Source of the DNA: an uncultured delta proteobacterium
Lineage (GTDB): Bacteria > Myxococcota > Myxococcia > Myxococcales > Myxococcaceae
NCBI GenBank assembly: GCA_963796055.1
Contig: CAWCKH010000005.1
Location: forward strand, 128,001 to 192,000
Direction of reading: 5' to 3'
DNA length: 64,000 bases
The translations under genes and the position numbers were made by a program. How positions within the stretch are numbered: position 1 is the stretch's first letter; each line of letters begins with the position of its first letter. The notes under the pieces were generated by a model, which saw nothing but the letters and a program-made list of their open reading frames with translations, was not told the DNA's origin and ran no database searches. Below, piece after piece: positions 29,826-62,060 of this stretch.

Positions 29826-29971
29826 GTCCGCGATGTTGCACCCGGCCCTGAACCGGCACCCGTGCCCGACACCGGGATCGACGTCCAATCGACACTCGGC
29901 AGGGAGAAACCAGAGCAGGTCTGCGAGCGTGTCCTACAAAGGGCTCGCCACGGCGAGACCGGTCTACTGAG

Positions 29972-37263: not shown

Positions 37264-37461
37264 ATGGCACCGCCGCCGGACAAGAGCCGCGCCACCGAGC
37301 CCGCGCTGTGGGCGTTCGCCGTGTCGCTGGTGCTGTTGGTGGGCCCGGCGCGGGTGCTCTGGGCCGCCCCGGGGCGCGGCTGGCTCGCCCCGTTCCTGCT
37401 CTGGGGGGTGGTGATCGCCCTCGGGGCCTGGGCCGTCCACCGCCCGAGCGCTCCGCCATGA
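37264..37461 (+). CDS. Small membrane peptide, CbrX-like
   Basis: 65 aa, two hydrophobic stretches, W..PFLLW motif, ATGA overlap with the SLC5 kinase start. Confidence 0.7.
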   Translation: MAPPPDKSRATEPALWAFAVSLVLLVGPARVLWAAPGRGWLAPFLLWGVVIALGAWAVHRPSAPP

Positions 37462-41862: not shown

Positions 41863-41955
41863 GTTACGTTCGGTAACGCCCTGTTCCGGAACGACACGCG
41901 CGCCCCGGGGGAAGTCCGCAACGGAACGTGAGGCGGCCCCTGGCAGATGGCTTGC
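41863..41955 (+). promoter_or_regulatory. Enhancer plus sigma54 promoter 1 (Acs-like gene)
   Basis: GTTAC-gttcg-GTAAC 41863-41877; TGGCAG-ATGGC-TTGC 41941-41955. Confidence 0.75.
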
Positions 41956-41975
41956 CTGTCGGATTGCTCTTCCCC

Positions 41976-43400
41976 GTGAGCACCCGTCTCGTCGAATACA
42001 GCCTGGAGGAGCGGCTGGAGGCCTGCCGCCGGCTCGCCGCCGAGAGCCTGGACAGCCCGCGGCGCTTCTGGCTCCGCGAGGCCGGACTCCTGGACTGGGT
42101 GCGTTCTCCGGAGGAGGCCTTCGTGGGGGAGATGAAGCACGGGGACGTGAGCTGGTTCTCCGGCGGCCTGCTCAACGCGGCCTGGAATGCGGTGGACCGC
42201 CACGCGGTCGCCTCCCCCGAGCGGACGGCGCTGGTGTGGGCCCGGCCCGAGGGTGACGTGGTGTCCTGGACCTTCCGCGAGCTGCGCCAGGCCTCCTCGC
42301 GGATGGCCCAGGTGCTCCTCTCCCAGGGCGTGCGGTGGGGCGACCGGGTGGTCGGTCACCTGCCCGAGACGCCGACCCTGGCGATGCTCCACCTCGGCTG
42401 CGCCCGCATCGGGGCGGTCCCGGTGGCGGTGCCGGTCCGGTCGGGGGCGGCGCTCGGCCGGGTGCTGCGTGCCACCCGGGGCAGGGTCCTGGTCACGGCC
42501 GACGAGGCGCCCCTGCCCGATGGACGGCTTCCGCTGTGGGAGCGGGTGGAGGACCTCCTCGGCGGCCTGGGGCGGGTGGAATCGGTCCTGGTCGAGCGGC
42601 GCACCGGCACTCCGGTGAGCCTGGTGTACGGGCGGGACCAGGAGCTGGGGACCGCGCTGGCCCGTGCCCGGCCGACCTGCTCGCTTCGCCCCTGCGACGG
42701 CGAGGACCCGCTGCTGCTCGTGCCGGGCCTCGAGGAGGGCCCGCCGGTGGTGCACGGGCTGGCGGGCTTCCTGCTCTGTGCCGCGCTCGGGCTCCGCGAG
42801 GCGGCGGGAGTCGGCCCGGGGGCCCAGGTGCTCTGCACCGAGGGGTTCTCCGGTTCACGCATCGACGTGCTCTGGGGGACGTGGGTGCTCGGCGGCGCCC
42901 TGGTGTTCGACGAGCGGGGAGATGGCGCTCAACGCCCCCGGGCGCTCGGCGTCACCCACCTCTTCGGGCCGCGGGGAGCGCTGGCGGCGGCGGGGCCGGG
43001 CGTGCTCGGGGCCTCGCTGGACGGCTCGGACGCCTCGGTGGCGCCGGTCTGGACGCCCGAGGGCGGGGGGATGCTGGCCGCGCGCTTCGGAGACCTCGGC
43101 GGCACGGCGCTCTTCGGGGTGGACCCCGTCCTGGTGGACACGGTGGGCCGCCGTGCGGGCGGGGCCGGAGCCGAGGGAGAGCTGTGCGTGAAGCGCTCCT
43201 GGCCTGCCCAGCCCCGCAGCCTCGAGCAGGACCACGCCGGGTACGTCGCCCAGCGGCTGGAGCGCTACCCCGGGCTCTACCGGACGTTGGTGCGATGCCG
43301 GCAGCTCCCCGACGGAGCGCTCGCTGCCATCGCGACTCCGCTCGGCGGCATGACCCCCAGCAACGTCTATCCCATCGAAGGCCCCATCGGACGCGCGTGA
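41976..43400 (+). CDS. Acetyl-CoA synthetase-like protein lacking catalytic motifs and C-terminal domain
   Basis: Acs-like WF.GG.LN..NAVDRH, GDRV, CARIGA, VTADE, EDPL, SWP. No YTSGSTG, TETG, TGD or terminal Lys motif. Confidence 0.8.
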   Translation: MSTRLVEYSLEERLEACRRLAAESLDSPRRFWLREAGLLDWVRSPEEAFVGEMKHGDVSWFSGGLLNAAWNAVDRHAVASPERTALVWARPEGDVVSWTFRELRQASSRMAQVLLSQGVRWGDRVVGHLPETPTLAMLHLGCARIGAVPVAVPVRSGAALGRVLRATRGRVLVTADEAPLPDGRLPLWERVEDLLGGLGRVESVLVERRTGTPVSLVYGRDQELGTALARARPTCSLRPCDGEDPLLLVPGLEEGPPVVHGLAGFLLCAALGLREAAGVGPGAQVLCTEGFSGSRIDVLWGTWVLGGALVFDERGDGAQRPRALGVTHLFGPRGALAAAGPGVLGASLDGSDASVAPVWTPEGGGMLAARFGDLGGTALFGVDPVLVDTVGRRAGGAGAEGELCVKRSWPAQPRSLEQDHAGYVAQRLERYPGLYRTLVRCRQLPDGALAAIATPLGGMTPSNVYPIEGPIGRA

Positions 43401-43429
43401 GGCGTGTTTCGCCGGCTCCGGCTTCCGGT

Positions 43430-43537
43430 GTTACCGAGGGCAACAAGGGGCGTTACGTTTTGTAGCAGTGGTGCAGGAGCAACCGCGCTGCGTCACCCAG
43501 AGATTTCAAAGGTGAATCGGACCGGTATGTCTCTTGC
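43430..43537 (+). promoter_or_regulatory. Enhancer plus sigma54 promoter 2 (DUF4212-actP)
   Basis: GTTAC-cgagg-GCAAC 43430-43444; GTTAC-gtttt-GTAGC 43452-43466; CGGTAT-GTCTC-TTGC 43523-43537. Confidence 0.7.
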
Positions 43538-43588
43538 GGTGTGAGTGTGCTCGAGCCGAACCCCCCGCTTGCCCCGGAGAAGGGACCC

Positions 43589-43879
43589 ATGGCCGAGCTC
43601 ACCGAAGCGCAGAGGCACGAGTACTGGAATTACAACATCCGTCTCACCGTCATCCTCCTCATCATCTGGGCCTTCTTCGGGTTCATCCTCGGCGGGGTGC
43701 TCGCCGGCGAGCTGAACAACATCGTCATCGGGGGCTTCCCGCTCGGCTACTACATCGCCGCCCAGGGTTCGCTGGCGGTCTTCGTGATCGAGATCGCCGT
43801 CTACGCCCGGCTGATGAACAAGAAGGACCGCGAGTACGGACTCGAAGACTCCACCACCCCCGGCCCGAGGGTCGCGTGA
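43589..43879 (+). CDS. DUF4212 small subunit of solute:sodium symporter
   Basis: YW..NIRL...LLIIW...GFPLGYYIAAQGS...D.EYG. Confidence 0.9.
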   Translation: MAELTEAQRHEYWNYNIRLTVILLIIWAFFGFILGGVLAGELNNIVIGGFPLGYYIAAQGSLAVFVIEIAVYARLMNKKDREYGLEDSTTPGPRVA

Positions 43880-45807
43880 TGACCACCGCCATCGCCCCCA
43901 CGCGCAAGTGGACGCTGAACAAGATCTTCGGGCTCTACACGGTCGCCTTCCTCGGAATGACGATCCTCATCGGCCTGGCCGAGAAGTTCCTCGGCCTGCC
44001 CAACCGGTGGATCGGCTGGCTCTTCATGGCACTGAGCATGGGGATCTACGTGCTGATCGGGATCCTCACCCGGACCACGGACTCGGACCAGTACTACGTG
44101 GCCGGGCGCGGGGTGCCTGCGATCTACAACGGGATGGCCACCGGGTCGGACTGGATGTCCGCCGCCTCGTTCATCTCCATGGCCGGAGCGCTCTCGGTGC
44201 AGGGCTTCAGCGGGCTCGCCTACGTGATGGGGTGGACCGGGGGGTACGTGCTGCTGGCAGTCTTCCTCGGCCCCTACCTCCGCCAGTTCGGCGCCTACAC
44301 CATTCCCGACTTCCTCGGAGCACGGTACGGCGGAAACACGGCCCGGTTGGTGGGCGTGCTCGCCGCGATTCTCTGCTCCTTCACCTACCTCATCGCCCAG
44401 GTCACCGGGGTCGGCCTGATCGTCAGCCGCTTCCTGGGGCTGCCGTTCAACGTCGGGGTCTTCGCGGGTCTCATCGGAGTGCTCTTCTGCTCGGTGCTGG
44501 GGGGGATGCGTTCGATCACCTGGACCCAGGTGGCTCAGTACATCATCCTCATCATCAGCTACCTGGTTCCGGTGGTGGTGCTGAGCTGGCAGCTCTTCAG
44601 CTTCCCGCTCCCCCAGTTCACCTACGGGCAGCTGCTGCAGCGAAACAGCGCGTCGGCGATCAAGGTGACCAACGACCCGGCCGAAGCGGCCACCCGCGCG
44701 GCCTGGAAGAAGGAAGCCGACGAGGCCGCCGCCAAGCTCAAGCAGCCGGCTCTCTCCGAGGCCGAGAGGGACAAGCTGACCGCCACGCAGAAGACGGGGG
44801 CGGCGCAGGCCAAGCCGCCCGCCGCGCCGGGGGCGACCATCGCCAACTACCTCACCGTGCCCAAGGGCGTGGGGATGTGGAACTTCCTGGCCCTCACCTT
44901 CTGCCTGATGGTGGGCACCGCAGGGCTGCCGCACATCTTGACCCGGTACTACACCACGCCCTCGGTGAGGGAAGCGCGAACCTCGGTGGGCTGGGGCCTG
45001 TTCTTCATCTTCCTCCTCTACTTTACCGCCCCGGCCTACGCCGCATTCGCCCGGTTCGTGGTCTACAGCCGGCTGGTCGGCACGCAGATCTCCGACCTCC
45101 CGCGCTGGGTGGCCTTGTGGAAACCCGCCGGCCTCTTCGACGTGGTGGACAAGATCGGCGACGGGGTGGTGCAGCTGGCGGACTTCGTCATCAAGAGCTC
45201 CGACTTCGTGGTGCTGGCGATGCCGGAGATGGCCGGGCTGCCGTTCGTGATCACCGGCCTGGTGATGGCCGGGGGCCTGGCCGCCGCGCTCTCCACCGCG
45301 GACGGCCTCCTGCTGACCATCGCCAACGCGATCTCCCATGACATGTACTACAAGGTGATCAATCCCAAGGCCCCGCTGATCGTCCGGCTCACGGTGACCA
45401 AGATTCTCCTGGTCGCGACCGCACTCATCGCCGCGGGCGTGGCCACCTTCCGTCTGGCAATCATCGTCGAGCTGGTGGCCTGGGCCTTCAGCCTCGCGGC
45501 GTCGTCCTTCTTCCCGGCACTGGTCATGGGCATCTGGTGGAAGCGGGCGAATCGACCGGGAGCGGTGGCCGGGATGCTGGTCGGCCTCGGCCTCACCCTC
45601 ATCTACATGACCGGCTCGCGCTTCTTCGGAATGTCCTGGTTCGGGACCGCCACCGTGGCCTCGGGGGTGTTCGGGATCCCCCTCGGCTTCCTCACCATCT
45701 ACGTGGTCTCGCTCCTCACAGCCGCGCCGCCCCAGCGGGTCCAGGAACTGGTGGCCGACGTGCGCTATCCCAAGGCCACCATCTCCTCGACGGAGTACGC
45801 CCACTAG
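43879..45807 (+). CDS. actP: Sodium:solute symporter, ActP-like cation/acetate permease
   Basis: YYVAGRGVP, NGMATGSDWMSAASFISMAG, GTAGLPHIL.RYYT, AAALSTADGLLL. Confidence 0.88.
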   Translation: MTTAIAPTRKWTLNKIFGLYTVAFLGMTILIGLAEKFLGLPNRWIGWLFMALSMGIYVLIGILTRTTDSDQYYVAGRGVPAIYNGMATGSDWMSAASFISMAGALSVQGFSGLAYVMGWTGGYVLLAVFLGPYLRQFGAYTIPDFLGARYGGNTARLVGVLAAILCSFTYLIAQVTGVGLIVSRFLGLPFNVGVFAGLIGVLFCSVLGGMRSITWTQVAQYIILIISYLVPVVVLSWQLFSFPLPQFTYGQLLQRNSASAIKVTNDPAEAATRAAWKKEADEAAAKLKQPALSEAERDKLTATQKTGAAQAKPPAAPGATIANYLTVPKGVGMWNFLALTFCLMVGTAGLPHILTRYYTTPSVREARTSVGWGLFFIFLLYFTAPAYAAFARFVVYSRLVGTQISDLPRWVALWKPAGLFDVVDKIGDGVVQLADFVIKSSDFVVLAMPEMAGLPFVITGLVMAGGLAAALSTADGLLLTIANAISHDMYYKVINPKAPLIVRLTVTKILLVATALIAAGVATFRLAIIVELVAWAFSLAASSFFPALVMGIWWKRANRPGAVAGMLVGLGLTLIYMTGSRFFGMSWFGTATVASGVFGIPLGFLTIYVVSLLTAAPPQRVQELVADVRYPKATISSTEYAH

Positions 45808-45907
45808 AGGAGAACCCCGCTGACCTCCCAGGGGCCCGGGGGTCCTCGCCCGACGGCAACGGGCGCGGTCCTCCCCGGGCCTCGCCCGCTGTTGGAGGCG
45901 TTCGCCG

Positions 45908-46195
45908 ATGGCATTGCTCCCCGGCGTGCTGCTCATTCTCCGCACGGTGAGCTTCATCGCCGTCTGCTACGTGGGCCTGTACATCGCCGCGACGGGGTTG
46001 GTCCGGAATCCTCAGAGCAAGGTGCTGGCGTTCTTCGCCCTGGTTGCCGCGCCCATTCTCCGTCCCGCCCGGGCGCTGGCCGGAACTGGGGCGTCCGAGC
46101 GGCGGGTGCGGTGGGTGGCCTTCGCCCTGGTGGTCGGGGTGTGGGCGGTGGCGGTTGCGCTCGACCTCAACTTCGGAGCACGACCCCCCCGCTGA
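45908..46195 (+). CDS. Small membrane protein (YggT-like)
   Basis: TM segments; FF.LV..PILRP.R pattern. Confidence 0.55.
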   Translation: MALLPGVLLILRTVSFIAVCYVGLYIAATGLVRNPQSKVLAFFALVAAPILRPARALAGTGASERRVRWVAFALVVGVWAVAVALDLNFGARPPR

Positions 46196-46229
46196 CCCGC
46201 GGGAGGTCAGGGCTGCGCGCGGCGGAGCC

Positions 46230-46560
46230 CGTCCTGCGCCAGGAGCAGGTGCTCCAAGGCGTCCATCCCCGAGCGCCGTATCGCCAGTGGACGTTGTCGC
46301 TGCCGATGCCAGTGCGCTTCTGTCTGGCCTCTTCGTCCAGGCGCTCTTCGGCTTCCAGCGCCGTACGGCCCGGGCGGCTGGGGTTGCCCGGCCGCTCAGC
46401 GGCGCCGTCGCCTTCGTCCAGCGCTTGGGCTCGGCGCTCCAGCTGACGCCCACTTCCACGTCCCCGTCCCAGAGGCCGTCTTCGAGGGGGTGCACTCCGA
46501 GGAGATGCGCCTGCACCCGCCGCGTCGGGCCATGGAACCCTCCGCTCCCTCGTCTCTCAG
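46230..46560 (+). mobile_element. IS91/ISCR-family transposase remnant (frameshifted)
   Basis: PYRQWTLSLP..VRF, then GAVAFVQRLGSALQLTP, then after a 1-nt shift HFHVPVPEAVF (HUH motif, 46451-46459). Confidence 0.75.
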
Positions 46561-46623
46561 GCGGGTGGACGCGAGGATGCGGGAGGGGACTACGATGCGC
46601 CTCGCGATGGAGGGAGCGGCCAC

Positions 46624-46881
46624 TTGAAGCGGACCAACGTCAGGAACGAACGCCTGGTCGCCCTGGCCTTGTTCGGTCTGCTCCTCTTCAACTACCCACT
46701 CCTCCAGATGTTCAACGCGCCCACGCTGGTCCTGGGGTTCCCGAAGCTCTATCTGTACCTCTTCGTCGCCTGGGCGGTGCTGATCTCGGGAGCCGCCCTG
46801 ATCCTCCGGGTGAGCGAATCCGACGGGGGAGACCTCCCCGGCGGGCGGGGACGGGCGCGACGGCCGCCGTCGCTACGCTGA
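46624..46881 (+). CDS. Small membrane protein preceding the SLC5 sensor kinase
   Basis: LLFNYPLL..F...LGFPKLYLYLFVAWAVLI; RBS GGAG; 9 nt upstream of the kinase. Confidence 0.8.
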   Translation: MKRTNVRNERLVALALFGLLLFNYPLLQMFNAPTLVLGFPKLYLYLFVAWAVLISGAALILRVSESDGGDLPGGRGRARRPPSLR

Positions 46882-46890
46882 GGCGCACAC

Positions 46891-49713
46891 GTGCTCCGGG
46901 ACTGGGTCGTCATCTCCGTCGCCTGCGCCTACCTGGGGCTCCTCTTCGCGATCGCCTACTACGGTGACCGGCGCGCCGACCGCGGGCGGAGCCTCATCGC
47001 GAACCCGTACATCTACTCGCTGTCGCTCGCGGTCTACGCGACCGCGTGGACTTTCTACGGCTCGGTCGGGCGCGCCGTCTCCACCGGCATCGGGTTCCTG
47101 CCCATCTACATCGGCCCGACGCTCATGTGCCTTCTGTGGTGGATCCTGCTGCGGAAGATCATCCTCATCAGCAAGGTCCACCGGATCACGTCGCTGGCGG
47201 ACTTCATCGCTTCCCGGTACGGCAAGAGCGCCCTCGTCGCGGGGCTCGTCACCGTCATCGCGGTGATCGGGATTCTCCCCTACATCTCGCTCCAGCTGAA
47301 GGCGATCTCCACCGCTTTCACGATCGTCCACTCGCACGACGTGGCGGTCGTCGGCGCGGGCCACGGCGGGCCGTTCCTCGGCGACACCGCGCTGTACGCG
47401 GCGCTCATCCTCGCCGCCTTCACCATCATTTTCGGGACCCGCCACCTCGACGCCTCGGAGCGACACGAGGGGATGGTCGCGGCGATCGCCTTCGAGTCGC
47501 TGGTGAAGCTCGTCGCCTTCCTGGCGGTGGGCGCGTTCGTGACCTGGGGCATGTTCGACGGGTTCCGGGACGTCTTCACGCGCTCCCGCGAGCTACCCGG
47601 GGTCGAGGCGCTCTTCGTCATCGGGGGAACGGGCGACGGGCACACGGGCATCCTGGCCTCCCTCTACTCCGCGACCTTCTTCGCCATGCTCGCGATCCTG
47701 TTCCTGCCCCGGCAGTTCCAGGTCGCGGTGGTCGAGAACGTCGACGTCGACCACGTGAAGACCGCGATCTGGCTGTTCCCGCTCTACTTGCTGGTCATCA
47801 ACTTCTTCGTGCCGGCGATCGCCTTCGGGGGGATGCTCCACTTCGCCGGCACTCCGGTCGATCCGGACACGTACGTGCTCACCCTGCCGCTCTCCAGGGG
47901 CCAGAACGGGCTCGGGCTGCTCGTCTTCATCGGAGGGCTCTCCGCGGCGACCGGAATGGTGATCGTCGAGACGATCGCGCTCTCCACCATGGTCTGCAAC
48001 GACCTCGCCATGCCGCTGCTGCTGCGCTGGCGCGCGCTGCGGCTGAACCAGCGGCCGGATCTCACCGGACTCCTGCTGGGCATCCGGCGCGGGGCGATCC
48101 TGGTGATGCTGCTCCTCGGCTACCTCTACTTCCGGATAGCGGGGGAGGCCTACGCGCTGGTGTCGATCGGCCTCATCTCCTTCGCCGCGGTGGCGCAGTT
48201 CGCACCCGCCTGCCTGGGCGGGCTCTTCTGGAAGGGCGGTACGCGCGCCGGCGCCCTCGCCGGCCTCTCCGCCGGATTCCTGGTCTGGCTCTACACCCTC
48301 CTCGTCCCGGCGTTCGCGAAGTCGGGCTGGGTGCCCATGTCCATCGTCGAGGCGGGGCCGTTCGGGGTGGAGGCCCTGAGGCCCCTGCAGCTCTTCGGGC
48401 TCACCGGCCTCGACCAGATCACCCACGGGATGATCTGGTCCATGCTGGCCAACGTGGGGGCCTACATCGGGTTCTCGCTGTCGACCACCCAGAGCGCGGT
48501 CGAGCACAGCCAGGCGACGCTGTTCGTGGACGTGTTCAAGCACTCCGCCGCCGGCACCGGGTCGCTCTTCTGGCGGGGCGGCGTGTCGGTCCAGGAGCTG
48601 CGCGCGCTCCTCTCGCGCTTCCTCGGGGCGGACAAGGCCGACGAGGTGCTGGAGGGCTACGCGCGCGATCGTCGCCTGCTGTCGGCGTGGGAGGTCGACG
48701 CCGACGCGAACCTCATCCAGTTCGCCGAGACGAAGCTGGCCGGCGCCATCGGCGGAGCGTCGGCCCACGCGATGGTGGCGTCGGTCGTGAAGGAGGCCCC
48801 GCTCACCATGGACGAGGTGATGTCCATCCTCGACGAGGCCTCGCAGATCATGAAGTACAGCCGGGAGCTGGAGAAGACGTCGCGGGAGCTCACCAGCGCG
48901 TACGCGGAGCTCAGGAGCGCAAACGAGCAGCTGAAGGAGCTGGACAGGATGAAGGACGACTTCGTCTCCCACGTCTCGCACGAGCTCCGCACCCCTCTCA
49001 CCTCCATCCGCTCGGCCTCCGAGATTCTCCACGACCATCCCGAGCTCGATGCCGCCACCCGCACCAAGTACCTGTCGGTCGTCATCCAGGAGGCGGAGCG
49101 GCTCACCCGCCTGATCAACCAGGTCCTCGACCTCTCGAAGATCGAGGCCGGCCGGGTCGAGTGGCGGATCGGGGAGGTGAGCCCGCGCGAGGTGGTCGAG
49201 CACGCCGTGGCGGCGACGAGCCAGCTCTTCGCCCAGAAGGCGGCGACGCTGGAGGTCGACGTGCCGGTGGAGGCCCCGCGGATCCTCGCCGATCGGGACC
49301 GCCTCGTGCAGGTGGTGATCAACCTCCTCTCGAACGCGGCCAAGTTCTGCGCCGACCCGGGCGGCCGGGTCTCCATCTCGCTGCGCGCGGAGCCGGGGGC
49401 GGTCCGCGTCGACGTGCGTGACAACGGGATGGGGATCGCGGCGAAGGACCAGGAGCTCATCTTCGAGAAGTTCCGCCAGGGGGGCGACACCCTCACCACC
49501 AAGCCGAGGGGAACCGGCCTGGGGCTCCCGATCAGCCGCGAGATCATCCACCACTTCGGGGGGCGCCTCTGGGTGGAGAGCGAGCCCGGGAGAGGAGCCA
49601 CCTTCTCGTTCGTCATCCCGCTCCGCCGTCAGCCGGAGGTGGGCGGTGGCGACGTGCGGGACGCTCGCGCCGCTGCGCTCGGCGCGTCCGGGACGGAGGC
49701 CGGTGCCAGCTGA
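46891..49713 (+). CDS. CrbS/MxtR-like SLC5-STAC histidine kinase
   Basis: LSLAVYATAWTFYGSVG, TSLADFIASRYGKS, LPRQFQV; STAC (IGGASA); SHELRTPL; GTGLGL. Confidence 0.9.
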   Translation: MLRDWVVISVACAYLGLLFAIAYYGDRRADRGRSLIANPYIYSLSLAVYATAWTFYGSVGRAVSTGIGFLPIYIGPTLMCLLWWILLRKIILISKVHRITSLADFIASRYGKSALVAGLVTVIAVIGILPYISLQLKAISTAFTIVHSHDVAVVGAGHGGPFLGDTALYAALILAAFTIIFGTRHLDASERHEGMVAAIAFESLVKLVAFLAVGAFVTWGMFDGFRDVFTRSRELPGVEALFVIGGTGDGHTGILASLYSATFFAMLAILFLPRQFQVAVVENVDVDHVKTAIWLFPLYLLVINFFVPAIAFGGMLHFAGTPVDPDTYVLTLPLSRGQNGLGLLVFIGGLSAATGMVIVETIALSTMVCNDLAMPLLLRWRALRLNQRPDLTGLLLGIRRGAILVMLLLGYLYFRIAGEAYALVSIGLISFAAVAQFAPACLGGLFWKGGTRAGALAGLSAGFLVWLYTLLVPAFAKSGWVPMSIVEAGPFGVEALRPLQLFGLTGLDQITHGMIWSMLANVGAYIGFSLSTTQSAVEHSQATLFVDVFKHSAAGTGSLFWRGGVSVQELRALLSRFLGADKADEVLEGYARDRRLLSAWEVDADANLIQFAETKLAGAIGGASAHAMVASVVKEAPLTMDEVMSILDEASQIMKYSRELEKTSRELTSAYAELRSANEQLKELDRMKDDFVSHVSHELRTPLTSIRSASEILHDHPELDAATRTKYLSVVIQEAERLTRLINQVLDLSKIEAGRVEWRIGEVSPREVVEHAVAATSQLFAQKAATLEVDVPVEAPRILADRDRLVQVVINLLSNAAKFCADPGGRVSISLRAEPGAVRVDVRDNGMGIAAKDQELIFEKFRQGGDTLTTKPRGTGLGLPISREIIHHFGGRLWVESEPGRGATFSFVIPLRRQPEVGGGDVRDARAAALGASGTEAGAS

Positions 49714-49724
49714 ACGGAGCCAGC

Positions 49725-50096
49725 ATGAAGAAGAGAGTCCTGATCGCCGACGACGAGCCGAACATCGTCATGTCACTCCAGTTCCTCATGGAGTTCGAGG
49801 GGTACGAGGTGCGGACCGCGGCCGACGGGGAGACGGCCCTCCAGATCCTCCGCGACTTCCGTCCCGACCTGGTCCTGCTCGATGTGATGATGCCAAAGCG
49901 AAACGGCTACGAGATCTGCCAGGCCGTGCGCGAGACGCCCGCCCTGGCGGGCATCAAGGTGGTGATGCTGACCGCGAAGGGGCGTGACATCGACGCCGAG
50001 AAGGGCCTCGCCCTCGGCGCCGATTCCTACGTCACGAAGCCGTTCGCCACGAAGGAGCTGGTGGCCACGGTGAAGGCGTTGCTCGGCGACGCGTGA
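49725..50096 (+). CDS. Single-domain response regulator
   Basis: ADDEPNI, LLDVMMP, LTAKG, KPF. Confidence 0.92.
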   Translation: MKKRVLIADDEPNIVMSLQFLMEFEGYEVRTAADGETALQILRDFRPDLVLLDVMMPKRNGYEICQAVRETPALAGIKVVMLTAKGRDIDAEKGLALGADSYVTKPFATKELVATVKALLGDA

Positions 50097-52288: not shown

Positions 52289-52308
52289 GTCTCTCGAGCG
52301 ACGGCAGC

Positions 52309-53772
52309 TCACCAGGAGAGCTGGGTGCGGAACCGGTCGGCCAGTCCCCGCTGGAACCAGCGAATGGTCCGGAAGGCCTGGCGGAGGGCGGCGCGGTCGA
52401 TGGCGTCGAGGCGGGAAGGGTCGACCTGGGTCGAGGGAGGCCGGACTTCCATGGCCGCGCCCAGCTCGGTATCGAGGCGGGCCCGGAGCAGCGTCTCCAG
52501 GGCGTGAGTCAGGTCGCGGCCCTCCTCCGCGCCCAGGGCCCCGGCGTCCACCGCGCGGGCGACACGGGCGGAGGTGCCGGTGTCCTTCATGCCAAGCTGC
52601 ACCGCGTAGGCCCGCATCCCGTGCACCAGAGGGAAGAGCCCCAGCGCCTTGACGTCGAAGCGCCCCCGATGGGGGCCATGGCGGGCAACCCGGAAACGGC
52701 CGAAGAGCCCCAGAGGCGGATCCCGCCGCAGGGCTTCGCGCGCCAGACGCTGGTGGAAGGGCGCGTACCGGGGAGCCTGCGTGCACGCCCAGGTCCACAC
52801 TTCGCTCGCCACCGCCTCGTCACCGGCGACGAACCGCCAGTCGAAGAACACGCTCGCCTCGACCAGGGCATCGTCCTCCGGACGTTCCATCCACTCGAGA
52901 AATCGCTCCTTCCACCGCCCGACGTCGAGGCGCCACCGGGGGTTGGTCGCCATGAAATTCCCGGGACAGTGGGGAACGCCAAGTGCCGCCAGTCTCTGGG
53001 CGATGCCCTCGGCCAGTCGAGTGAAGTACTCCCTGGCCGGGCCGTCGTCCGCGCCGAGGGCGTACACCAGCCCGTTGTCCTGGTCGGTGACCATGGTCTG
53101 CTCGCGGCGGCCTTCGCTGCCTCCCACCACCAGGGCATACGGCACCGGCGGTCGTCCGTGCCCCTCGGCAGCCAGCGCTTGCTCGGCAAGCTGCGTCACC
53201 CGGCGCAGGGTCCGGCTGTGGACCTCGGCGACGAGCTCGGTCACCTCGATGGCCGGGAGGCCGGCGCGGACCAGGCCCCGAACCAGCGGAGGGAGCCGCG
53301 ACTCGGCGGCGCGAATCCCGTCCAGGGAGGCCGCGGCGTCCACCGCCTGGGTGAGCGAGGCCGGATGCCCCGCTTCGAGCGGAACGAAGTCGTCGGTGAA
53401 GAGCACGCCGATCAGCTGACCGTCCCCGTCAACCACCGCCAGGTGGTGGAGCGCCGTGCGAGTCATCTCCCGGAGCGCGGTGAAGGCCCAGTCCTCGCCG
53501 CGCACCGTTTTCACCGGGGCGGACATGATCCCCGAGACCGGTCCCGAGGGTGGATACCCGCCGGCGACGACCTTGGAGCGAAGGTCCCGGTCGGTGACGA
53601 TCCCGATCGGGGTTCCTTTGTTCGCGACCACCGCCGCGCCGGTGTGTCGCTCGGTCATCGCCCTGGCCACGGCCGCCACGGCCTCGGTCGGGGCTGCGGT
53701 CACCAGCGGGCGACTCAGCAGCTCGCGGGTCCGGAGGCGGTGCAGCCAAGTCTGCAGGCGAGCGTCGGGCAT
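52309..53772 (-). CDS. CBS-domain DUF294 putative nucleotidyltransferase (copy 1)
   Basis: CBS pair (GIVTDRDLR), GSEGRREQT..TDQDNG, CPGNFMA.NP.W, IFFD-like motif. Confidence 0.9.
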   Translation of the reverse strand: MPDARLQTWLHRLRTRELLSRPLVTAAPTEAVAAVARAMTERHTGAAVVANKGTPIGIVTDRDLRSKVVAGGYPPSGPVSGIMSAPVKTVRGEDWAFTALREMTRTALHHLAVVDGDGQLIGVLFTDDFVPLEAGHPASLTQAVDAAASLDGIRAAESRLPPLVRGLVRAGLPAIEVTELVAEVHSRTLRRVTQLAEQALAAEGHGRPPVPYALVVGGSEGRREQTMVTDQDNGLVYALGADDGPAREYFTRLAEGIAQRLAALGVPHCPGNFMATNPRWRLDVGRWKERFLEWMERPEDDALVEASVFFDWRFVAGDEAVASEVWTWACTQAPRYAPFHQRLAREALRRDPPLGLFGRFRVARHGPHRGRFDVKALGLFPLVHGMRAYAVQLGMKDTGTSARVARAVDAGALGAEEGRDLTHALETLLRARLDTELGAAMEVRPPSTQVDPSRLDAIDRAALRQAFRTIRWFQRGLADRFRTQLSW

Positions 53773-53904
53773 CCTCGGGAGCGCGCGGTTGGGCCGAGCA
53801 GGTTTTCAGATTCCTCCCACTCCCGCCATCCGGTGGCAGGGGTTGAACCCATCGGAGGCGCCTCTGGGGTGGCCCCGACCTCGGAATCTCTTGAGGATGG
53901 CATT

Positions 53905-55371
53905 TCAGGAGAGCTGGGTGCGGAACCGGTCGGCCAGTCCCTGCTGGAACAGGCGAATCGTCCGGAATGCCTCGCGGAGGGCGGCCCGATCGATGGCGTC
54001 GAGACGGGAGGGGTCGACCTGGCTCGAGGGAGGATGTCCTTCCATCGTCGCGCCCAGCTCTGCATCGAGGCGCGTGTGGAGCAGCGTTTCCAGAGCGTGA
54101 CTCAGGTTGCGGCCCTCCCCCGAGGGCAGGGCCCCCGCCTCCACCGCGCCGGCGATGCGGGCTGAGGTCCCGGTGTCCTTCAGACCGAGCTGCACCGCGT
54201 AGGTCCTCATCCCGTGCACCAGGGGGAAGAGCCCCAGCGCCTTGACGTCGAAGCACCCCCGATGCGGGCCGCGGTGGGCCACCCGGAAGCGGCCGAAGAG
54301 CCCGAGCGGCGGATCCCGGCGCAAGGCTTCGCGTGCCAGGCCCTGGTGGAAGGGCGCGTACCGGGGAGCCTGCCCGCAGGCCCAGGTCCACACCTCGCTT
54401 GCCACCGCCGCGTCGCCGGCGACGAACCGCCAGTCGAAGAACACGCTCGCCTCGACCAGGGCGTCGCCCTCCGGCCGTTCCATCCACTCCAGAAAGCGCT
54501 CCTTCCAACGCCCGACGTCGAGGCGCCACCGGGGGTTGACCGCCATGAAATTTCCGGGACACGGGGGAACGCCCAGCGCCGCGAGCCTCTGGGCGATGCC
54601 CTCGGCCAGTCGGGTGAAGTACTCGCCGGCCGCGCCTGCGACATCCTCGGCGACGGGGGTGTAGACCAGCCCGTTGTCCTGATCGGTGACCATGGTCTGC
54701 TCCCGCCGACCCTCGCTGCCCCCCACCACCAGGGCATACGGCACCGGTGGTCGTCCGTGCCCCTCGCTGGCCAGGCCCTCCTCGGCAAGCTGAACCACCC
54801 GCCGAAGTGTCCGGTCGTGGACCTCGGCCACCAGCTGCGTCACCTCGATGGCTGGGAGGCCTCCGCGGATGAGCCCCCGCACCATCCCGGGGAGGCGGGC
54901 TGCCGCAACCCGGAGCGCATCCGGCGAGGTCGCGGCGTCCACCTCCTTCACCACCGAGGCCGGATGCCCCCTCTCGAGTGCGAGGAAGTCATTGCTGGAG
55001 ATGACCCCGAGGAGCTCGCCTTCCCCATCGACCACTCCCAGGTGATGGATGGCCGAGCGGGTCATCTCCCGGAGCGCGATGAAGGCCCAGTCCTCGGCGC
55101 GAACGGTCTTCAGCGGCGCGGACATGATTCCCGACACCGGCCCCGAGGGAGGGTAGCCGCCAGCGACAACCTTGGAGCGAAGGTCGCGATCGGTCACGAT
55201 TCCCACCGGCGTCCGGCCGGTGGCGATCACCGCCGAGCCGATGCGGCGCTCGCTCATCGCTCGGGCGACGGCAGCGACGGCTTCGGTCGGCGCGGTGAGG
55301 AACGGGGGCCGGGTCACCAGCTCCCTGGCCCGCAGGCGGTGCAGCCCGGTTTCGAGGCGAGCGTCCGGCAT
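53905..55371 (-). CDS. CBS-domain DUF294 putative nucleotidyltransferase (copy 2)
   Basis: Same motifs; long near-identical stretches shared with copy 1. Confidence 0.9.
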   Translation of the reverse strand: MPDARLETGLHRLRARELVTRPPFLTAPTEAVAAVARAMSERRIGSAVIATGRTPVGIVTDRDLRSKVVAGGYPPSGPVSGIMSAPLKTVRAEDWAFIALREMTRSAIHHLGVVDGEGELLGVISSNDFLALERGHPASVVKEVDAATSPDALRVAAARLPGMVRGLIRGGLPAIEVTQLVAEVHDRTLRRVVQLAEEGLASEGHGRPPVPYALVVGGSEGRREQTMVTDQDNGLVYTPVAEDVAGAAGEYFTRLAEGIAQRLAALGVPPCPGNFMAVNPRWRLDVGRWKERFLEWMERPEGDALVEASVFFDWRFVAGDAAVASEVWTWACGQAPRYAPFHQGLAREALRRDPPLGLFGRFRVAHRGPHRGCFDVKALGLFPLVHGMRTYAVQLGLKDTGTSARIAGAVEAGALPSGEGRNLSHALETLLHTRLDAELGATMEGHPPSSQVDPSRLDAIDRAALREAFRTIRLFQQGLADRFRTQLS

Positions 55372-55467
55372 CGTTGATCGCGGTCTCGGCCGGCCGAGGT
55401 TCCCAGGTTCCACCCCCCCGCGCCATGCCGATGGAGCAGCGGCCACGCCCCGGCTAACCTCCGGCGG

Positions 55468-56796: not shown

Positions 56797-56871
56797 CGGA
56801 CTCGGCGAGCGGGGGACCCATCCACCGAGAGCGCCTCCTGCAGCCGAGTTGCAGTGAGACTGCGCCTCTGT

Positions 56872-56972
56872 GTTACCGAAGGTAACGGACTGTTACCGAT
56901 CGGGGCAGACCGAGCCACCTGGTGACGCTCTGCCAACGGATTACGAGGCGTGCAACTTGGCTTGAAAGTTGC
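56872..56972 (+). promoter_or_regulatory. Enhancer plus sigma54 promoter 3 (MFS transporter)
   Basis: TGTTAC-cgaag-GTAAC 56871-56886, second TGTTAC 56891-56896; TGGCTT-GAAAG-TTGC 56958-56972. Confidence 0.78.
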
Positions 56973-57016
56973 GGTCTGCGGAAGTTGCCCACCCGTCTTC
57001 TGAAGGAGGCAGACCG

Positions 57017-58651
57017 ATGGCCGTCGCCGCGTCGTCCCTGCCCATGATCGACAAGAGCGAAGAGCGTCGCGTCATCTTCGCGTCGAGCCTGGGTACCGTC
57101 TTCGAGTGGTACGACTTCTACATCTACGCCGTGCTGGCGCCCTTCTTCGCCAGCGTGTTCTTCCCCCCGGGGAACCAGACGACGGCCCTCCTCAATGCTT
57201 TCGTGAACTACGCGGCAGGCTTCCTGGTCCGCCCGTTCGGGGCGCTGTTCTTCGGCCGGATCGGCGACCTGGTCGGCCGCAAGTACACCTTCCTCGTCAC
57301 CATCACGGTCATGGGTCTGTCCACGGCGCTGGTCGGCTTTCTCCCCACCTACTCCTCGGTCGGCATGCTCGCGCCGCTGCTGCTGCTCCTGCTCCGGCTG
57401 GCGCAGGGCCTGGCGCTGGGCGGTGAGTACGGCGGTGCGGCCACCTACGTGGCCGAGCACGCCCCGGAGAACAAGCGTGGCGGCCACACCGCCTGGATCC
57501 AGACCACCGCCACGGTGGGTCTGCTGCTGGCGCTGGTGGTGATCCTGGCGTGCCGCAGCGGGATGACCACCGCGGACTTCGCGAGCTGGGGCTGGCGCAT
57601 TCCGTTCATCCTCTCGATCATCCTCCTGGTCATCTCCATCTACATCCGGCTCAAGCTGAACGAATCGCCGATGTTCCGGCGGATGAAGGAAGAGGGCAAG
57701 GGAAGCAAGGCCCCGCTGTCCGAGAGCTTCGGGCAGTGGAGCAACCTCAAGATCGTGATCCTCGCCCTCCTCGGCGCGACTGCCGGACAGGGCGTGGTCT
57801 GGTACACCGGCCAGTTCTATGCGCTGTTCTTCCTCCAGACGACGCTGAAGGTCCCGTTCGAGACGGTGTACATGCTCATCGCCATCTCGCTGATCATCGG
57901 CACCCCGTTCTTCCTCGTCTTCGGCCGGCTCTCGGACCGGATCGGCCGCAAGTGGATCATGATGGCCGGGTGCCTGCTCGGCGTGCTCACCTACTTCCCG
58001 CTCTTCAAGGGGCTGACCCACTACGCCAACCCGGCGCTGGAGGCGTTCAACGCCAGCAACAAGATCACGCTGACCGCCACCAACTGCCAGACGCACATCT
58101 TCGCCCTGCCCACCACCAAGTACAGCGAGTGTGATCGCGTCCGGAACATCCTCGGCTCGAGGAGCGTGAACTACGACAACATCGAAGGCGCTCCAGGCTC
58201 CATGCCGGTGGTGCGGATCAACGACAAGGAGATCAGCTCTCCGGCCTCGATGGACGCGGCCGGGATCAAGGCCTTCGAAGGGCAGATCACCGGTGCCCTC
58301 ACTGCCTCAGGCTATCCGGCGAAGTTCGACCCGGCGGGCCTGAACTGGCCGATGGTGCTTCTCATCCTGCTGATCATGGTGATCTACGTCACCATGGTGT
58401 ACGGCCCCATCGCCGCGTTCCTGGTGGAGCTGTTCCCCACCCGGATCCGGTACACGTCGATGTCGCTGCCGTACCACATCGGCAACGGATGGTTCGGCGG
58501 CATGCTCCCTCTCACCGCGTCGGCCCTGGTGGCGGCGAACGGGGACATCTACTTCGGCCTCTGGTACCCGATCATCGTCGCGGCGATGACCTTCGTGATC
58601 GGCTCGCTCATGATCAAGGAGACCAAGGACCACAAGATCGGCGTGGTGTAG
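57017..58651 (+). CDS. MFS transporter, metabolite:H+ symporter (MHS) family
   Basis: SSLGTVFEWYDF, GRIGDLVGRK, GGEYGGA, ELFPTRIRY; RBS AAGGAGG. Confidence 0.92.
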   Translation: MAVAASSLPMIDKSEERRVIFASSLGTVFEWYDFYIYAVLAPFFASVFFPPGNQTTALLNAFVNYAAGFLVRPFGALFFGRIGDLVGRKYTFLVTITVMGLSTALVGFLPTYSSVGMLAPLLLLLLRLAQGLALGGEYGGAATYVAEHAPENKRGGHTAWIQTTATVGLLLALVVILACRSGMTTADFASWGWRIPFILSIILLVISIYIRLKLNESPMFRRMKEEGKGSKAPLSESFGQWSNLKIVILALLGATAGQGVVWYTGQFYALFFLQTTLKVPFETVYMLIAISLIIGTPFFLVFGRLSDRIGRKWIMMAGCLLGVLTYFPLFKGLTHYANPALEAFNASNKITLTATNCQTHIFALPTTKYSECDRVRNILGSRSVNYDNIEGAPGSMPVVRINDKEISSPASMDAAGIKAFEGQITGALTASGYPAKFDPAGLNWPMVLLILLIMVIYVTMVYGPIAAFLVELFPTRIRYTSMSLPYHIGNGWFGGMLPLTASALVAANGDIYFGLWYPIIVAAMTFVIGSLMIKETKDHKIGVV

Positions 58652-58690
58652 CGCCCGTTCCCTTCGAGTCCGGGGATCCGTCCCCGACCG

Positions 58691-58744
58691 CCGGCCGGCC
58701 CCGTCCCTCCCCCCCGGGACACGGGTGCCGGCCGGGTTTTTTTT
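58691..58744 (+). terminator. Rho-independent terminator after the MFS gene
   Basis: CCGGCCGGC...GCCGGCCGG stem followed by T8. Confidence 0.75.
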
Positions 58745-60254
58745 AGGGTGCGAACAGGCTGGGGCAATGGCCCGGCTGGGCGGGCGACCCGGAGATGGCC
58801 CCGCCGCGGGGGATGCACTGGCTGGGCGGAAGCGCCTGACCGTGCTCCACCCGGTTCACCAGGAGGTCGAAGGCCCGCTGCGCGTGCGGCTCGATGTACT
58901 CGAGCTGGGGGAAGGTCACCTTGAACGTCTCGATGTGGTTCCCGTTCTGGACCTCGTAGAGGCGGAAGTCCGGGCGGCGGTGGTCGTGCCTTCGCTCGCC
59001 GTGCCCATCGTCGTCACCGTCGTCCCCGTCGGCGAGGGCCGCCTCCACCTTTCGCGCGTAGGCCCGGGCGTGCCGGTCGATGGGCAGCAGGCCGTCCATG
59101 GTGCCGGCGACGGTGATCAGCGGCCGCTGGATCCGTCCGGAAGTGGCGAAGCTCGCGACCTGCGCCCCCACGCCCGACTCCGAGAGACGGGCGTAGTAGT
59201 TGTAGGTGCCGGTGCCCTGGGCGTAGGTGTCGTAGCCGGGGTCGAGCCGCTTCTGCCACTGGCAGTGGGTCACCTCCCAGAACTGGGCCCAGTAGCTGGT
59301 CCAGAGCGAGGCCGTCCCGCTCACGATGTCTGGCGGATACCCGGCGGCGCGGATGTTCTTCGCCGCGGTGCTGTTCGGGTCCAGCCCCGAGGCAACGTAG
59401 TCGGGGTAGTTCAGGATGGCCGGCGGGAGGTCGGTGAGGAGGTTGGGGCCGGCCGGGTCGACCTCCGTCCCCTCCCAGTCCACGCCGCCATCGAAGAGAC
59501 CGGGGAAGAGCTCCACCGCGCGGCGGACCTGGTAGCCGCCGTTGGAGGTACCGACCGCGTAGGTGAAGCGAGGGCCGCGGCCGTAGCGCGCCTCCACGCC
59601 CTGCTGGGCGAGCCGGGCCGCGTCGCCCATGAAGAGCGCCCAGCGGACGAAGGGCTGACCCGGATCGTTGTCGTAGAAGTTCACCCAGAACTGGGAGCCG
59701 GGGCCGGGGTTCAGCCGGCAGGCGAGCTCGTTCGGCGGGGTGGGACTGGAAGGGTTGGTGATGCGGAGGTTCAGCACCCCCTTGTTCTGCGAGGCGTAGG
59801 CGTAGCCCTTCTGGACGACGTAGTCGCTCCAGGCAAAGTCGCCGTTGAACTCGCTCCGGGTGCCGGAGGCCCCGGCGACCACCAGCCGGCCGTTCCAGTC
59901 GTCGGGCAACCGGAGCAGGAAGCGCGCCTGTCCCTGGGGATCGCCGGCGATCCGGCCGTCGATCTGGACGCCCGGCACCGCCTTGAAGATGGGCGTCCGG
60001 TCGGGGGCCGCCGGGGCGATGACGTTGCGGTCGGTGCTGGGGGTGAAGGCGCCCACCGGAAGGCCAGCAAGCGAATTGTCCGGCGGGGTGGTGGCCGGGT
60101 TGGCGGTGGTGAGATCCGGACTCTCGACGCACGTCGCGTCGACCAGCCGATCTCCGAGCCAGTGAAGCGCCTGGTCGCACTTGCTCCCCGCCCCGGCAGC
60201 GAGCGGCGCCAGCAGCGCGATCAGCATCGAGGAACGCAGCGTGCATTCGAGCAT
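58743..60254 (-). CDS. Secreted alpha/beta hydrolase (tannase/feruloyl esterase or 3HB-oligomer hydrolase-like)
   Basis: Signal peptide, LRLPDDWNGRL, GTSNGG nucleophile elbow, GTMDGLLP, GNHIE. Confidence 0.8.
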   Translation of the reverse strand: MLECTLRSSMLIALLAPLAAGAGSKCDQALHWLGDRLVDATCVESPDLTTANPATTPPDNSLAGLPVGAFTPSTDRNVIAPAAPDRTPIFKAVPGVQIDGRIAGDPQGQARFLLRLPDDWNGRLVVAGASGTRSEFNGDFAWSDYVVQKGYAYASQNKGVLNLRITNPSSPTPPNELACRLNPGPGSQFWVNFYDNDPGQPFVRWALFMGDAARLAQQGVEARYGRGPRFTYAVGTSNGGYQVRRAVELFPGLFDGGVDWEGTEVDPAGPNLLTDLPPAILNYPDYVASGLDPNSTAAKNIRAAGYPPDIVSGTASLWTSYWAQFWEVTHCQWQKRLDPGYDTYAQGTGTYNYYARLSESGVGAQVASFATSGRIQRPLITVAGTMDGLLPIDRHARAYARKVEAALADGDDGDDDGHGERRHDHRRPDFRLYEVQNGNHIETFKVTFPQLEYIEPHAQRAFDLLVNRVEHGQALPPSQCIPRGGAISGSPAQPGHCPSLFAP

Positions 60255-60461
60255 CGTGGAGGCCCTCACCCTGGAATTGGAGCGGCGGAGTCTGGGCCGT
60301 CCGGGAGGGTCTCCGGAAGCGACAAGTGGGTCAAAGAAGGGCGGTGAACGGCCGGGCGCGCCCGCGGGCCAGGGGAATTCCCGATGCAAGAACAGGACGG
60401 CGGGCGCCCTCGAACCCGAGGACGCCCGCCGCGCACGGTCCCCAGAGAGTGGAGCCCGGGG

Positions 60462-61649
60462 CTAGAAGCCGACCTGGAACTGCAGGAAGCCCTGCCACTG
60501 CGTGTTGCCGACTTCCCTGTCGGCGTAAATGAACTCGGCCGTGACTTTGTAGGTGTTCTGCAGGACGTACCACGAGAGGCCGCCATGGTAGGCCCGCGTC
60601 CAGCCACCGGCCGCGTTCCCGCTGTAGACGAAGCCGTCCGGAATCGCCCAGTCGAACGCCACGAACGGGCCGATGACCCCGAAGCGCATCGACACCAGCG
60701 CATCGAGCTGCTTCTTGGAGAGGTTGCTGTCGGAGCCTGCCCAGATCCGCCAGGCCGCGATGTCAACGCTGAGCTCGAGGTCGTCGCTGAACGGAATGTC
60801 GGCGAAGACGTCGAAGGCGAAGGTCGTCCAGCTCGTCATGCCGGTCGGTACCGCGGTCCCGCCGGCGGCGCTGGTGTACCCGGTCGTCCGGACTGAGTTG
60901 GTCTGGAAGTCACCCAGCACGCCGATGCTGACGATCGGGGACTTGGCGAAGCAGACCTGGCAGAACGCGTAGCCGTCCTCCTTGCCCGCGATGTTGAAGC
61001 GCAGAGTTCCAGCGAACCGCGGCGCGTCGCCCGGGTTGATTCCCTCCGCGGCGGGGGTGGTCGCGATCGTCTGCTCTCCATTGAAGACGCCGAGGCGGTA
61101 GTAGAGCCGGTCGTCCAGGAGGAGCCCGCGGAGCTCGACGCCCACATCGCGGGTGCCCCGCTGGCTGTTCGGCGCGTAGGCGGTCGGGAAGAGGCTCACG
61201 CTCGCGAACTTCGCACCCGAGGTCAGCGGGTTGTGCAGGTTCGGGAGGAGCATCAGGCCGGCGTCGATGAGCAGCGCCTTGCTGACCTTGTAGGTGGCCA
61301 GCGCATCGAGGAGGTAGAGGTTGTTGTTCCAGGAGACGCCGTCGGCGTTGGCCCCCGTCGGCGGGCCACCCTTCACCACCGCGCCGTAGCTGATGTCGGT
61401 TTCGATGAAGAACCCGATGTTTTCGTTGAACTGGCCACCGAGCAGGATGCGCGCCCGCCGGAGCAGAAAGTCGTTCGACGGGTCGCTCCCCGAGCCGGCC
61501 CCGTCCTGCGTGATGCGGTACTGCGCCTGAATCAGGGCACCGACGTCGACGAAGCCCTTCTCGCTGAACGAGATCTTCGCAGCGTTCGCCGTGCCCGCTG
61601 CCATCAGGCACAGCACTCCGAGACACGACTTCCAGGTTTGTGACCTCAT
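60462..61649 (-). CDS. Outer-membrane porin (OprO/OprP-like)
   Basis: Signal peptide, F.LRRARI, RDVGV..G, GVFNG, C-terminal QFQVGF. Confidence 0.82.
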   Translation of the reverse strand: MRSQTWKSCLGVLCLMAAGTANAAKISFSEKGFVDVGALIQAQYRITQDGAGSGSDPSNDFLLRRARILLGGQFNENIGFFIETDISYGAVVKGGPPTGANADGVSWNNNLYLLDALATYKVSKALLIDAGLMLLPNLHNPLTSGAKFASVSLFPTAYAPNSQRGTRDVGVELRGLLLDDRLYYRLGVFNGEQTIATTPAAEGINPGDAPRFAGTLRFNIAGKEDGYAFCQVCFAKSPIVSIGVLGDFQTNSVRTTGYTSAAGGTAVPTGMTSWTTFAFDVFADIPFSDDLELSVDIAAWRIWAGSDSNLSKKQLDALVSMRFGVIGPFVAFDWAIPDGFVYSGNAAGGWTRAYHGGLSWYVLQNTYKVTAEFIYADREVGNTQWQGFLQFQVGF

Positions 61650-61736
61650 TCGTCCCCTCTCCACGTGAATGCTGCCCCAGGGCACACGATGACCTAGCGC
61701 CAGTCGGCGACCAACTTTTTTTTGGCCCCGCTGTAG

Positions 61737-61840
61737 GCAATCCACGTTCCAGGGGCCTGCCCCTGCGTAGCTCAAGGACTTGCGCGCAGGGGGACCGCTC
61801 CCGGCGTGTGGATGGGTAACGGAGCGTTACCAACGGTAAC
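61737..61840 (-). promoter_or_regulatory. Enhancer plus sigma54 promoter 4 (porin)
   Basis: GTTAC-caacg-GTAAC 61826-61840 plus half-site 61816-61820; minus-strand TGGAAC-GTGGA-TTGC 61751-61737. Confidence 0.72.
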
Positions 61841-61987: not shown

Positions 61988-62060
61988 TGAGAGCGGAGGG
62001 AATCGAACCCACAACCTATGGATTAAGAGTCCATTGCTCTGCCAATTGAGCTACGCTCCC
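61988..62060 (-). tRNA. tRNA-Lys(CTT)
   Basis: GGGAGCG acceptor, AGCTCAATTGGCAGAGC D arm, ATGGA-CTCTTAA-TCCAT, GGTTCGATTCC. Confidence 0.95.

Follow-up and report, generated by a model that had tools for sequence, protein, structure and literature searches.

The closest described relatives of the system treated here are CbrAB of Pseudomonas and CrbS/CrbR. CbrB binds TGTTAC-N12-14-GTAACA-N15-19-GTAACA as a monomer (passages of PMC6296734 and PMC8871633), and CbrAB has been called unique to Pseudomonadaceae in review. The histidine pocket of CbrA is described as Y51, S53, W55, A56, F71, Y75, K196, F248 and F406 (passage of PMC13022988). CrbS/CrbR has a regulon of acs, actP/sssA, DUF485 and CBS-nucleotidyltransferase genes (passage of PMC5715377), and the putative acetate permease sssA is under its control in Vibrio cholerae (passage of PMC5436829). 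Here we analyze a 64,000-nucleotide (nt) stretch of an uncultured delta proteobacterium of the Myxococcaceae (contig CAWCKH010000005.1, positions 128,001 to 192,000; hereafter the window), in which a CbrA-type kinase and a CbrB-type sigma54 activator lie beside four intergenic regions that carry GTTAC-N5-GTAAC palindromes and sigma54 promoters. These conserved palindromes are probably the sites of the adjacent activator, which would directly drive carboxylate uptake genes.

Palindromes, sigma54 promoters and the adjacent regulators

Scanning of the window found the exact palindrome at 41863, 56872 and 61826-61840 and one-mismatch copies at 43430 and 43452, in agreement with a first-pass annotation of this DNA, which had listed the motif or a one-mismatch variant in four intergenic regions (sites A to D, Table 1). 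These five matches at one mismatch or fewer compare with a mean of 0.06 in shuffled sequence, and none of 100 shuffles reached five. In the whole genome (5.53 Mb), the exact palindrome occurs three times, always inside the window, against approximately 0.04 expected from the 930 half-sites counted. Of palindromes with up to one mismatch there are nine, five of them in the window, and this number is not above those for other spacers (3-16 for N0-N15). Therefore, the comparison with genome background favors the motif for the exact copies and not for the one-mismatch count, and the signal consists of the exact copies and their clustering. A search with a position weight matrix (PWM) placed the five window sites at the top ranks among 12 matches, a partly circular result because the matrix was trained partly on the same sites; in this whole-genome search no further site with a good promoter, and hence no other regulon member, was found. 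No site was seen upstream of the two intact acs genes or the second major facilitator superfamily (MFS) gene of this genome, and no exact half-site pair at N12-14 occurs in it.

The annotation had also described a second full or degenerate copy 20-22 bp from each site. This stands for site B, where the copy at 43452 has a single mismatch, while at sites A, C and D the second copy, 20 bp on, has three mismatches and is thus mainly a third half-site. A tRNA-Lys(CTT) gene lies approximately 150 bp upstream of site D (61988-62060, reverse strand), and the window also holds a tRNA-Leu gene (29971-30053, reverse strand).

Each site is followed by GG-N8-TTGC (41942, 43524 and 56959 on the forward strand, 61750 on the reverse strand), oriented to the next gene. 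The promoter elements lie 72-94 bp from the palindrome start, with the exact palindromes 79-90 bp before the promoter, which bears out the claim of correctly spaced sigma54 promoters about 70-95 bp after each site. GG-N8-TTGC itself is common (22 in the window versus 33 expected); on a given strand, a site has a chance of 0.0065 of being followed by one within the 29-bp range in question, which was chosen after the sites were seen. Among 97 site-to-promoter distances, of which rows from kin are not independent and a few are spurious, 87 fell at 68-72, 78-81 or 87-94 bp, approximately one helical turn apart. The genome has an intact rpoN (contig C4), and a second, partial rpoN-like match below cut-off was found on the same contig as the window (G000:C5:237691-238704). 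At promoter A, the predicted start is only ~9 nt before the GTG of the following gene, which leaves no space for a ribosome-binding site, and this distance is kept in the genus. Promoter-like matches on the reverse strand, close to sites B and C, fall within the 3′ end of the acs-like gene and were treated as incidental. The integration host factor (IHF) label at promoter D follows the IHF consensus.

The claim that a CbrAB-like system adjoins the sites was supported by homology for both components. The N-terminal half of the kinase (residues 4-592) matched the SLC5-STAC structure of P. putida CbrA (10ED) with E = 2e-151. In a quick tree of 64 activators, the window activator, its myxobacterial orthologues and gammaproteobacterial proteins, several of which are encoded in cbrA-cbrB-pcnB-folK synteny, formed one CbrB clade (SH-aLRT 100), and the other 29 activators of the genome fell outside it. 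The helix-turn-helix (HTH) domain of the activator is absent from all 29 when aligned. The H-box of the kinase and the receiver Asp of the activator are present in sequence, and the putative recognition helix, GISRKALWEKR, differs at two positions from G[IV]SRK[CST]LWERR of the Pseudomonas-type clade. In the first helix of the HTH domain (41640-41760), myxobacterial and acetate-linked proteins have YFR or YFK and Pseudomonas-type proteins YFQ (9/9), a candidate determinant of the site spacing. Linker length was considered as an explanation for the difference between N5 and wide spacing and rejected because the ranges overlap (48-68 versus 59-89 residues). The open reading frame (ORF) that overlaps the kinase start has chain X of 10ED (CbrX) as its sole PDB match, a weak one (E = 0.37), and a similar small ORF precedes 15 of 18 myxobacterial kinases. 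An acyltransferase gene (PF01553; 36392-37159, reverse strand) is divergent from cbrX-cbrA-cbrB.

Distribution of the site and the activator

Conservation of the motif before orthologous genes, proposed as a check of the annotation, was observed both within the genus and across the phylum. Ten of 12 genus genomes have the activator, each with 2-4 exact sites, and the two without it (68% and 75% complete) have no exact site. In addition, the site-to-promoter spacing is fixed for each gene across the genus.

Across 301 Myxococcota genomes, in which the activator was scored by its C-terminus, 67 have the activator, 60 have a site with promoter under a pattern relaxed to GTYAC, 57 have both and 231 neither; the relaxed pattern is thus found in 57 of the 67 genomes with the activator versus 3 of the 234 without. 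Of the 10 genomes with the activator only, eight have a site at one mismatch or fewer and one a site with two mismatches, and in the last the contig ends too early. The near-match sites of these nine precede acs, actP, porin, DUF4212 or MFS genes. Three genomes have the site only: G182 contains the kinase together with the beginning of the activator, G127 looks like a chance match, and G121 is a true exception. Activator, kinase, actP and site are jointly absent from two genomes (G147, G206), and in G019 the site and the activator are unlinked, on three contigs. Matches in G127, G052, G108 and G115 were taken as chance or unrelated, G127 and G108 being the two inspected. In genus g35 the layout is an N4 palindrome followed by GTCAC-N5-GTAAC. 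Outside the source genus, the genes behind the promoter are porin-acs-DUF485-actP or, in other cases, acs, MFS or DUF4212-symporter genes.

Of 400 genomes of the class to which the Oceanospirillum genome belongs, 41 also have a CbrB-type HTH. In the 30 loci listed, the gene after the activator was acs (9), a symporter module (2), CBS-DUF294 (4), pcnB (4) or none of the queries (11). Among 20 gammaproteobacterial loci taken more widely, with informative ones favored, the two pcnB-linked loci have N14/N15 sites, and of the 18 others 16 have acetate-type neighbors and six an N5 site with a sigma54-like promoter. The compact N5 spacing noted for the myxobacterium is thus not peculiar to myxobacteria, as the same design accompanies CbrB in these other gammaproteobacteria. 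Between cbrB and pcnB, sigma54 promoters are followed by A-rich CrcZ-like stretches in several loci, Oceanospirillum included (L223, L218, L220, L026 and L027).

In quick activator trees, the Pseudomonas-type activators form one monophyletic group (100) and the myxobacterial activators another (99), and both groups sit among acetate-linked gammaproteobacterial ones with only moderate support (84-90) and long outgroup branches; in the kinase tree the branching order of the groups is not settled. At the nine pocket positions of CbrA, the window kinase reads YTWTFYKAF and Pseudomonas-type CbrA YSWAFYKFF, with six of nine identical. The former set is also found in the second kinase of the window and in one of three CrbS-type reference kinases, which were assigned by length, by a receiver-like C-terminus judged by eye and, in one case, by adjacent LuxR and acs genes. 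At position 248, all 11 Pseudomonas-type rows have F, the other CbrA-clade rows A or S (36/36) and the CrbS-clade rows A or T (5/5); position 53 is S in 11/11, T in 32/36 and T in 5/5, respectively. This contrast, a single one at the level of clades, fits an ancestral carboxylate role.

Predicted targets and alternative explanations

The genes behind the four promoters are listed in Table 1. The Acs-like gene does follow site A as annotated, but it does not encode an active synthetase: the protein lacks the YTSGSTG P-loop, has no GRxDD motif, is missing the C-terminal domain with the catalytic Lys, and is below every NCBIfam cut-off. Its dN/dS was 0.10-0.16 in eight same-genus pairs, compared with 0.07-0.12 for the activator. 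By these sequence criteria it is a conserved pseudo-enzyme, catalytically dead and under purifying selection, and it may serve the system as a partner in feedback. It is kept in the source genus and in genus g32 (~51% identity) and belongs to a 100-member Atlas cluster. The target described as DUF4212-actP proved to be DUF4212 with a symporter of the VC_2705 type by TIGR profiles, not ActP proper; sssA is presumably VC2705. The porin, expected to be expressed with the hydrolase, faces promoter D and is homologous to the porin heading porin-acs-actP operons in other genomes. A strong hairpin (z -4.2) upstream of the hydrolase lies between the two genes, and their joint expression is thus uncertain.

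Table 1. Features of the regulator locus and its predicted regulon, in window coordinates
Feature	Coordinates	Strand	Remarks
cbrX-like ORF	37264..37461	+	65 aa, two-helix, overlaps kinase start
CbrA-clade kinase	37458..40436	+	SLC5-STAC-PAS-HisKA-HATPase, without receiver domain
CbrB-clade sigma54 activator	40433..41785	+	REC-AAA+ (GAFTGA)-HTH; predicted site binder
Site A	41863..41897	+	exact palindrome, degenerate copy at +20; exact in 10/10 same-genus genomes with activator
Sigma54 promoter A	41941..41955	+	78-79 bp spacing kept in genus; predicted start near 41967
Pseudo-acetyl-CoA synthetase (pseudo-acs)	41976..43400	+	474 aa; P-loop, GRxDD motif and C-terminal domain lost
Site B	43430..43466	+	two one-mismatch palindromes, 22 bp apart; weaker site
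Sigma54 promoter B	43523..43537	+	weakest of four, begins CGG; predicted start near 43549
DUF4212 small subunit and VC_2705-family solute symporter	43589..45807	+	TIGR03647 and TIGR03648 above cut-off
Accessory second system	46624..52288	+	small membrane ORF, SLC5 kinase, stand-alone receiver, DEDDh exonuclease-domain protein
Two tandem CBS-DUF294 nucleotidyltransferase genes	52309..55371	-	81% alike
Site C	56872..56896	+	exact palindrome, perfect third half-site at +20
Sigma54 promoter C	56958..56972	+	conserved in genus; predicted start near 56984
MHS-like MFS transporter	57017..58651	+	best TIGR00883, below its cut-off
Hydrolase, 3-hydroxybutyrate (3HB)-oligomer hydrolase/tannase-like	58743..60254	-	regulon membership uncertain
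Porin	60462..61649	-	weak ExtI / Porin_O_P matches
Sigma54 promoter D	61737..61751	-	CAA-N4-TTG IHF-like element ~32 bp upstream; predicted start near 61725
Site D	61806..61840	-	exact palindrome, perfect third half-site at +20

The block from DUF4212 to the CBS genes, including the second SLC5 kinase, which groups with CrbS-type kinases, is accessory and found in 3 of 13 genus genomes. The genus shows three layouts, with pseudo-acs followed by the MFS gene, with CitMHS in between, or with the whole 13-kb block in between. This block (43430-56872) is flanked by site copies, and at the block end in G007 two sites stand 214 bp apart, which suggests recombination between enhancers.

Regarding the mechanism, the CbrA-type kinase would phosphorylate the activator, which would bind alternating half-sites approximately 10 bp apart on one face of the helix, oligomerize and reach the sigma54 polymerase across a loop, with help of IHF at some promoters. 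The opened promoters would then give the porin, two inner-membrane transporters and the dead Acs-like protein, and the porin and transporters would scavenge short-chain carboxylates, probably acetate. The least certain step is the input, for which acetate or a similar acid is somewhat the better guess.

Several observations weigh against direct control by the CbrB-type activator or against this input. The strict site and promoter pattern was found in 32 of the 301 genomes, 26 with and six without the activator and in none of 29 in g35, and the pattern was relaxed after the g35 loci had been seen. Two genera account for 42 of the 57 double positives, so that the co-occurrence table overstates independence. 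Two nearly complete genomes (G121 and G196, 99-100%) lack both kinase and activator and keep porin-DUF485-actP with a site, exact in the former and one-mismatch in the latter, and G025, without this activator, has five exact palindromes in dense arrays. In 12 of the 18 gammaproteobacterial loci not linked to pcnB, no N5 site with promoter was found. RNA reads of a relative (three 2026 runs of one study), mapped to locus L184, covered both strands deeply without any clustering of read starts, and an increase in sense-type depth past the predicted start was seen in two of the runs but not in the third. Finally, the SLC5 domain of CbrA is described as dispensable for signaling (passages of PMC7918813, PMC9100948 and PMC8871633), which weakens the argument from the pocket.

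The explanation that best survives beside a carboxylate input keeps the same wiring and changes the signal: the kinase would report general carbon status through an intracellular PAS signal, as proposed for Pseudomonas CbrA. This is a serious but lesser possibility, and because it concerns the signal step alone, its weight is not to be added to that of the others. Soluble CbrA without SLC5 signals and deletion of PAS abolishes signaling (passages of PMC7918813 and PMC8871633), and among the predicted targets are an MHS transporter of unassigned substrate and a gene resembling 3HB-oligomer hydrolases but no active acs, both intact acs genes being without a site. On the other hand, the regulon is narrow, acetate genes are the targets across families, and position 248 differs from the F of the Pseudomonas-type clade.

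It is unlikely that only sites A, C and D are functional, with site B a decaying relic and the DUF4212-symporter block under the control of the second SLC5 kinase with its receiver. The mismatch in both copies, the CGG start of the promoter and the restricted occurrence of the block would agree with this. Nevertheless, G007 keeps a site resembling site B with the identical CGG promoter, family f14 and gammaproteobacteria have DUF4212-symporter genes behind such sites with good promoters, and the receiver of the block is without a DNA-binding domain, no such output domain being seen in any of the second-system genes (46624-52288).

Binding of the palindrome by another protein, either one of the ~30 sigma54 activators or a repressor, with the CbrB-type gene merely linked, is quite improbable. 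It would explain the sites kept in G121 and G196 and the unrelated arrays in G025, and the genus has a second activator beyond the porin; the published spacing (N12-14) and monomer binding of CbrB also differ. In G025 (C11:76000-148000), GTTAC-N5-GTAAC-like words ~14-21 bp apart fill at least six intergenic regions, where another regulator probably acts. Against such a binder, half-site and recognition helix match those of CbrB, and the site follows this activator across families and into gammaproteobacteria, also when unlinked as in G019. Both exceptions, which belong to genus g13, have also lost acs, from the middle of the operon, as expected of remnants.

That the pattern arose by chance, or by functionless local duplication of a single promoter, can practically be dismissed: the N5 spacer at one mismatch is not enriched genome-wide and GG-N8-TTGC is common, but across genera and two phyla the half-sites and the promoter are constant where the spacers and flanks have diverged. 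Direct control by the CbrB-type activator therefore remains our preferred explanation of the four sites.

The probable Myxococcus xanthus counterpart and known systems

We take MXAN_5852-5856 to be the locus tags of this region in Myxococcus xanthus. MXAN_5852 and MXAN_5853 are a paired kinase and Nla1 (passages and supplement rows of PMC4603909), and MXAN_5855 is listed as a porin (table of PMC6627406). MXAN_5856 is AcoL, a purified acetate-CoA ligase whose deletion improves predation and in which G367 and W396 were mutated (passages of bioRxiv 2023.12.11.571100); the acs of three g35 loci has both residues. MXAN_5852 was mutated in four parallel evolved populations (passage of bioRxiv 2021.06.17.448787). 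MXAN_5852/Nla1 with MXAN_5855 and AcoL is most likely the orthologous locus, as judged from gene order and the AcoL residues, not from direct alignment. The g35-type (M. xanthus-like) loci have an intact acs and a pair of N4 and N5 sites, whereas the window genome has the pseudo-acs and four promoters. The passages of the M. xanthus papers cited give no Nla1 target, site or CbrB link; Nla1 is not in Table 1 of Willett 2013, and MXAN_5852 and MXAN_5853 are not in PMC8570273. In the literature, with subscription papers outside the search, we found no account of this site, no link of Nla1 to CbrB or acetate and no reported CbrB-acetate link in myxobacteria. The present analysis thus proposes a site, promoters and a function for an orphan M. 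xanthus activator, most likely Nla1. If true, Nla1 would be the activator of acoL, a predicted target that limits predation according to the passages cited above.

As to the origin of these systems, the ancestral role of CbrAB may have been to control the uptake and activation of acetate directly, from sigma54 promoters with tandem N5 palindromes, and the CrcZ circuit, the wide spacing and the histidine pocket may be later rewiring of the Pseudomonas type. We regard this as nearly an even bet. If true, the ancestral N5 design persists in Myxococcota and in many non-pseudomonad gammaproteobacteria. With or without such an origin, one HTH family would read the same half-site at two spacings, and the small regulon together with the pocket contrast offers a handle on what CbrA senses.

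The window system shares with CbrX/CbrA/CbrB of Pseudomonas and Azotobacter the domain architecture, the cbrX overlap and membership of one clade in both trees, as well as a near-identical recognition helix, the GTTAC/GTAAC half-site core and sigma54 dependence. This CbrA/CbrB-clade pair in Myxococcota contradicts the statement confining CbrAB to Pseudomonadaceae. It differs in that half-sites stand 5 bp apart in alternating arrays instead of at N12-14/N15-19, in the predicted direct control of a few uptake genes, in the pocket changes S53T, A56T and F248A, and in the gene after the activator, which is pseudo-acs where CbrAB has cbrB-crcZ-pcnB synteny. Hfq was not found in the genome by a search whose control was positive, and CrcZ gave no match in a search whose positive control was also silent.

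With CrbS/CrbR (MxtR/ErdR), the system shares the SLC5-STAC sensor, the types of predicted target and the same pocket residues. However, CrbS is a hybrid kinase with a receiver, while the window kinase has none and lies outside the CrbS clade, and CrbR is a LuxR-type protein that binds the ACTU repeat at an RpoD promoter, unlike the sigma54 activator found here. RpuS/R of Sinorhizobium fredii likewise has an SLC5/STAC kinase and directly controls a monocarboxylate transporter operon, but with a LuxR-type regulator and a direct-repeat site (passages of PMC9100948). Judged from its sequence, the window system is of the CbrAB clade by descent and CrbS/R-like in its predicted output.

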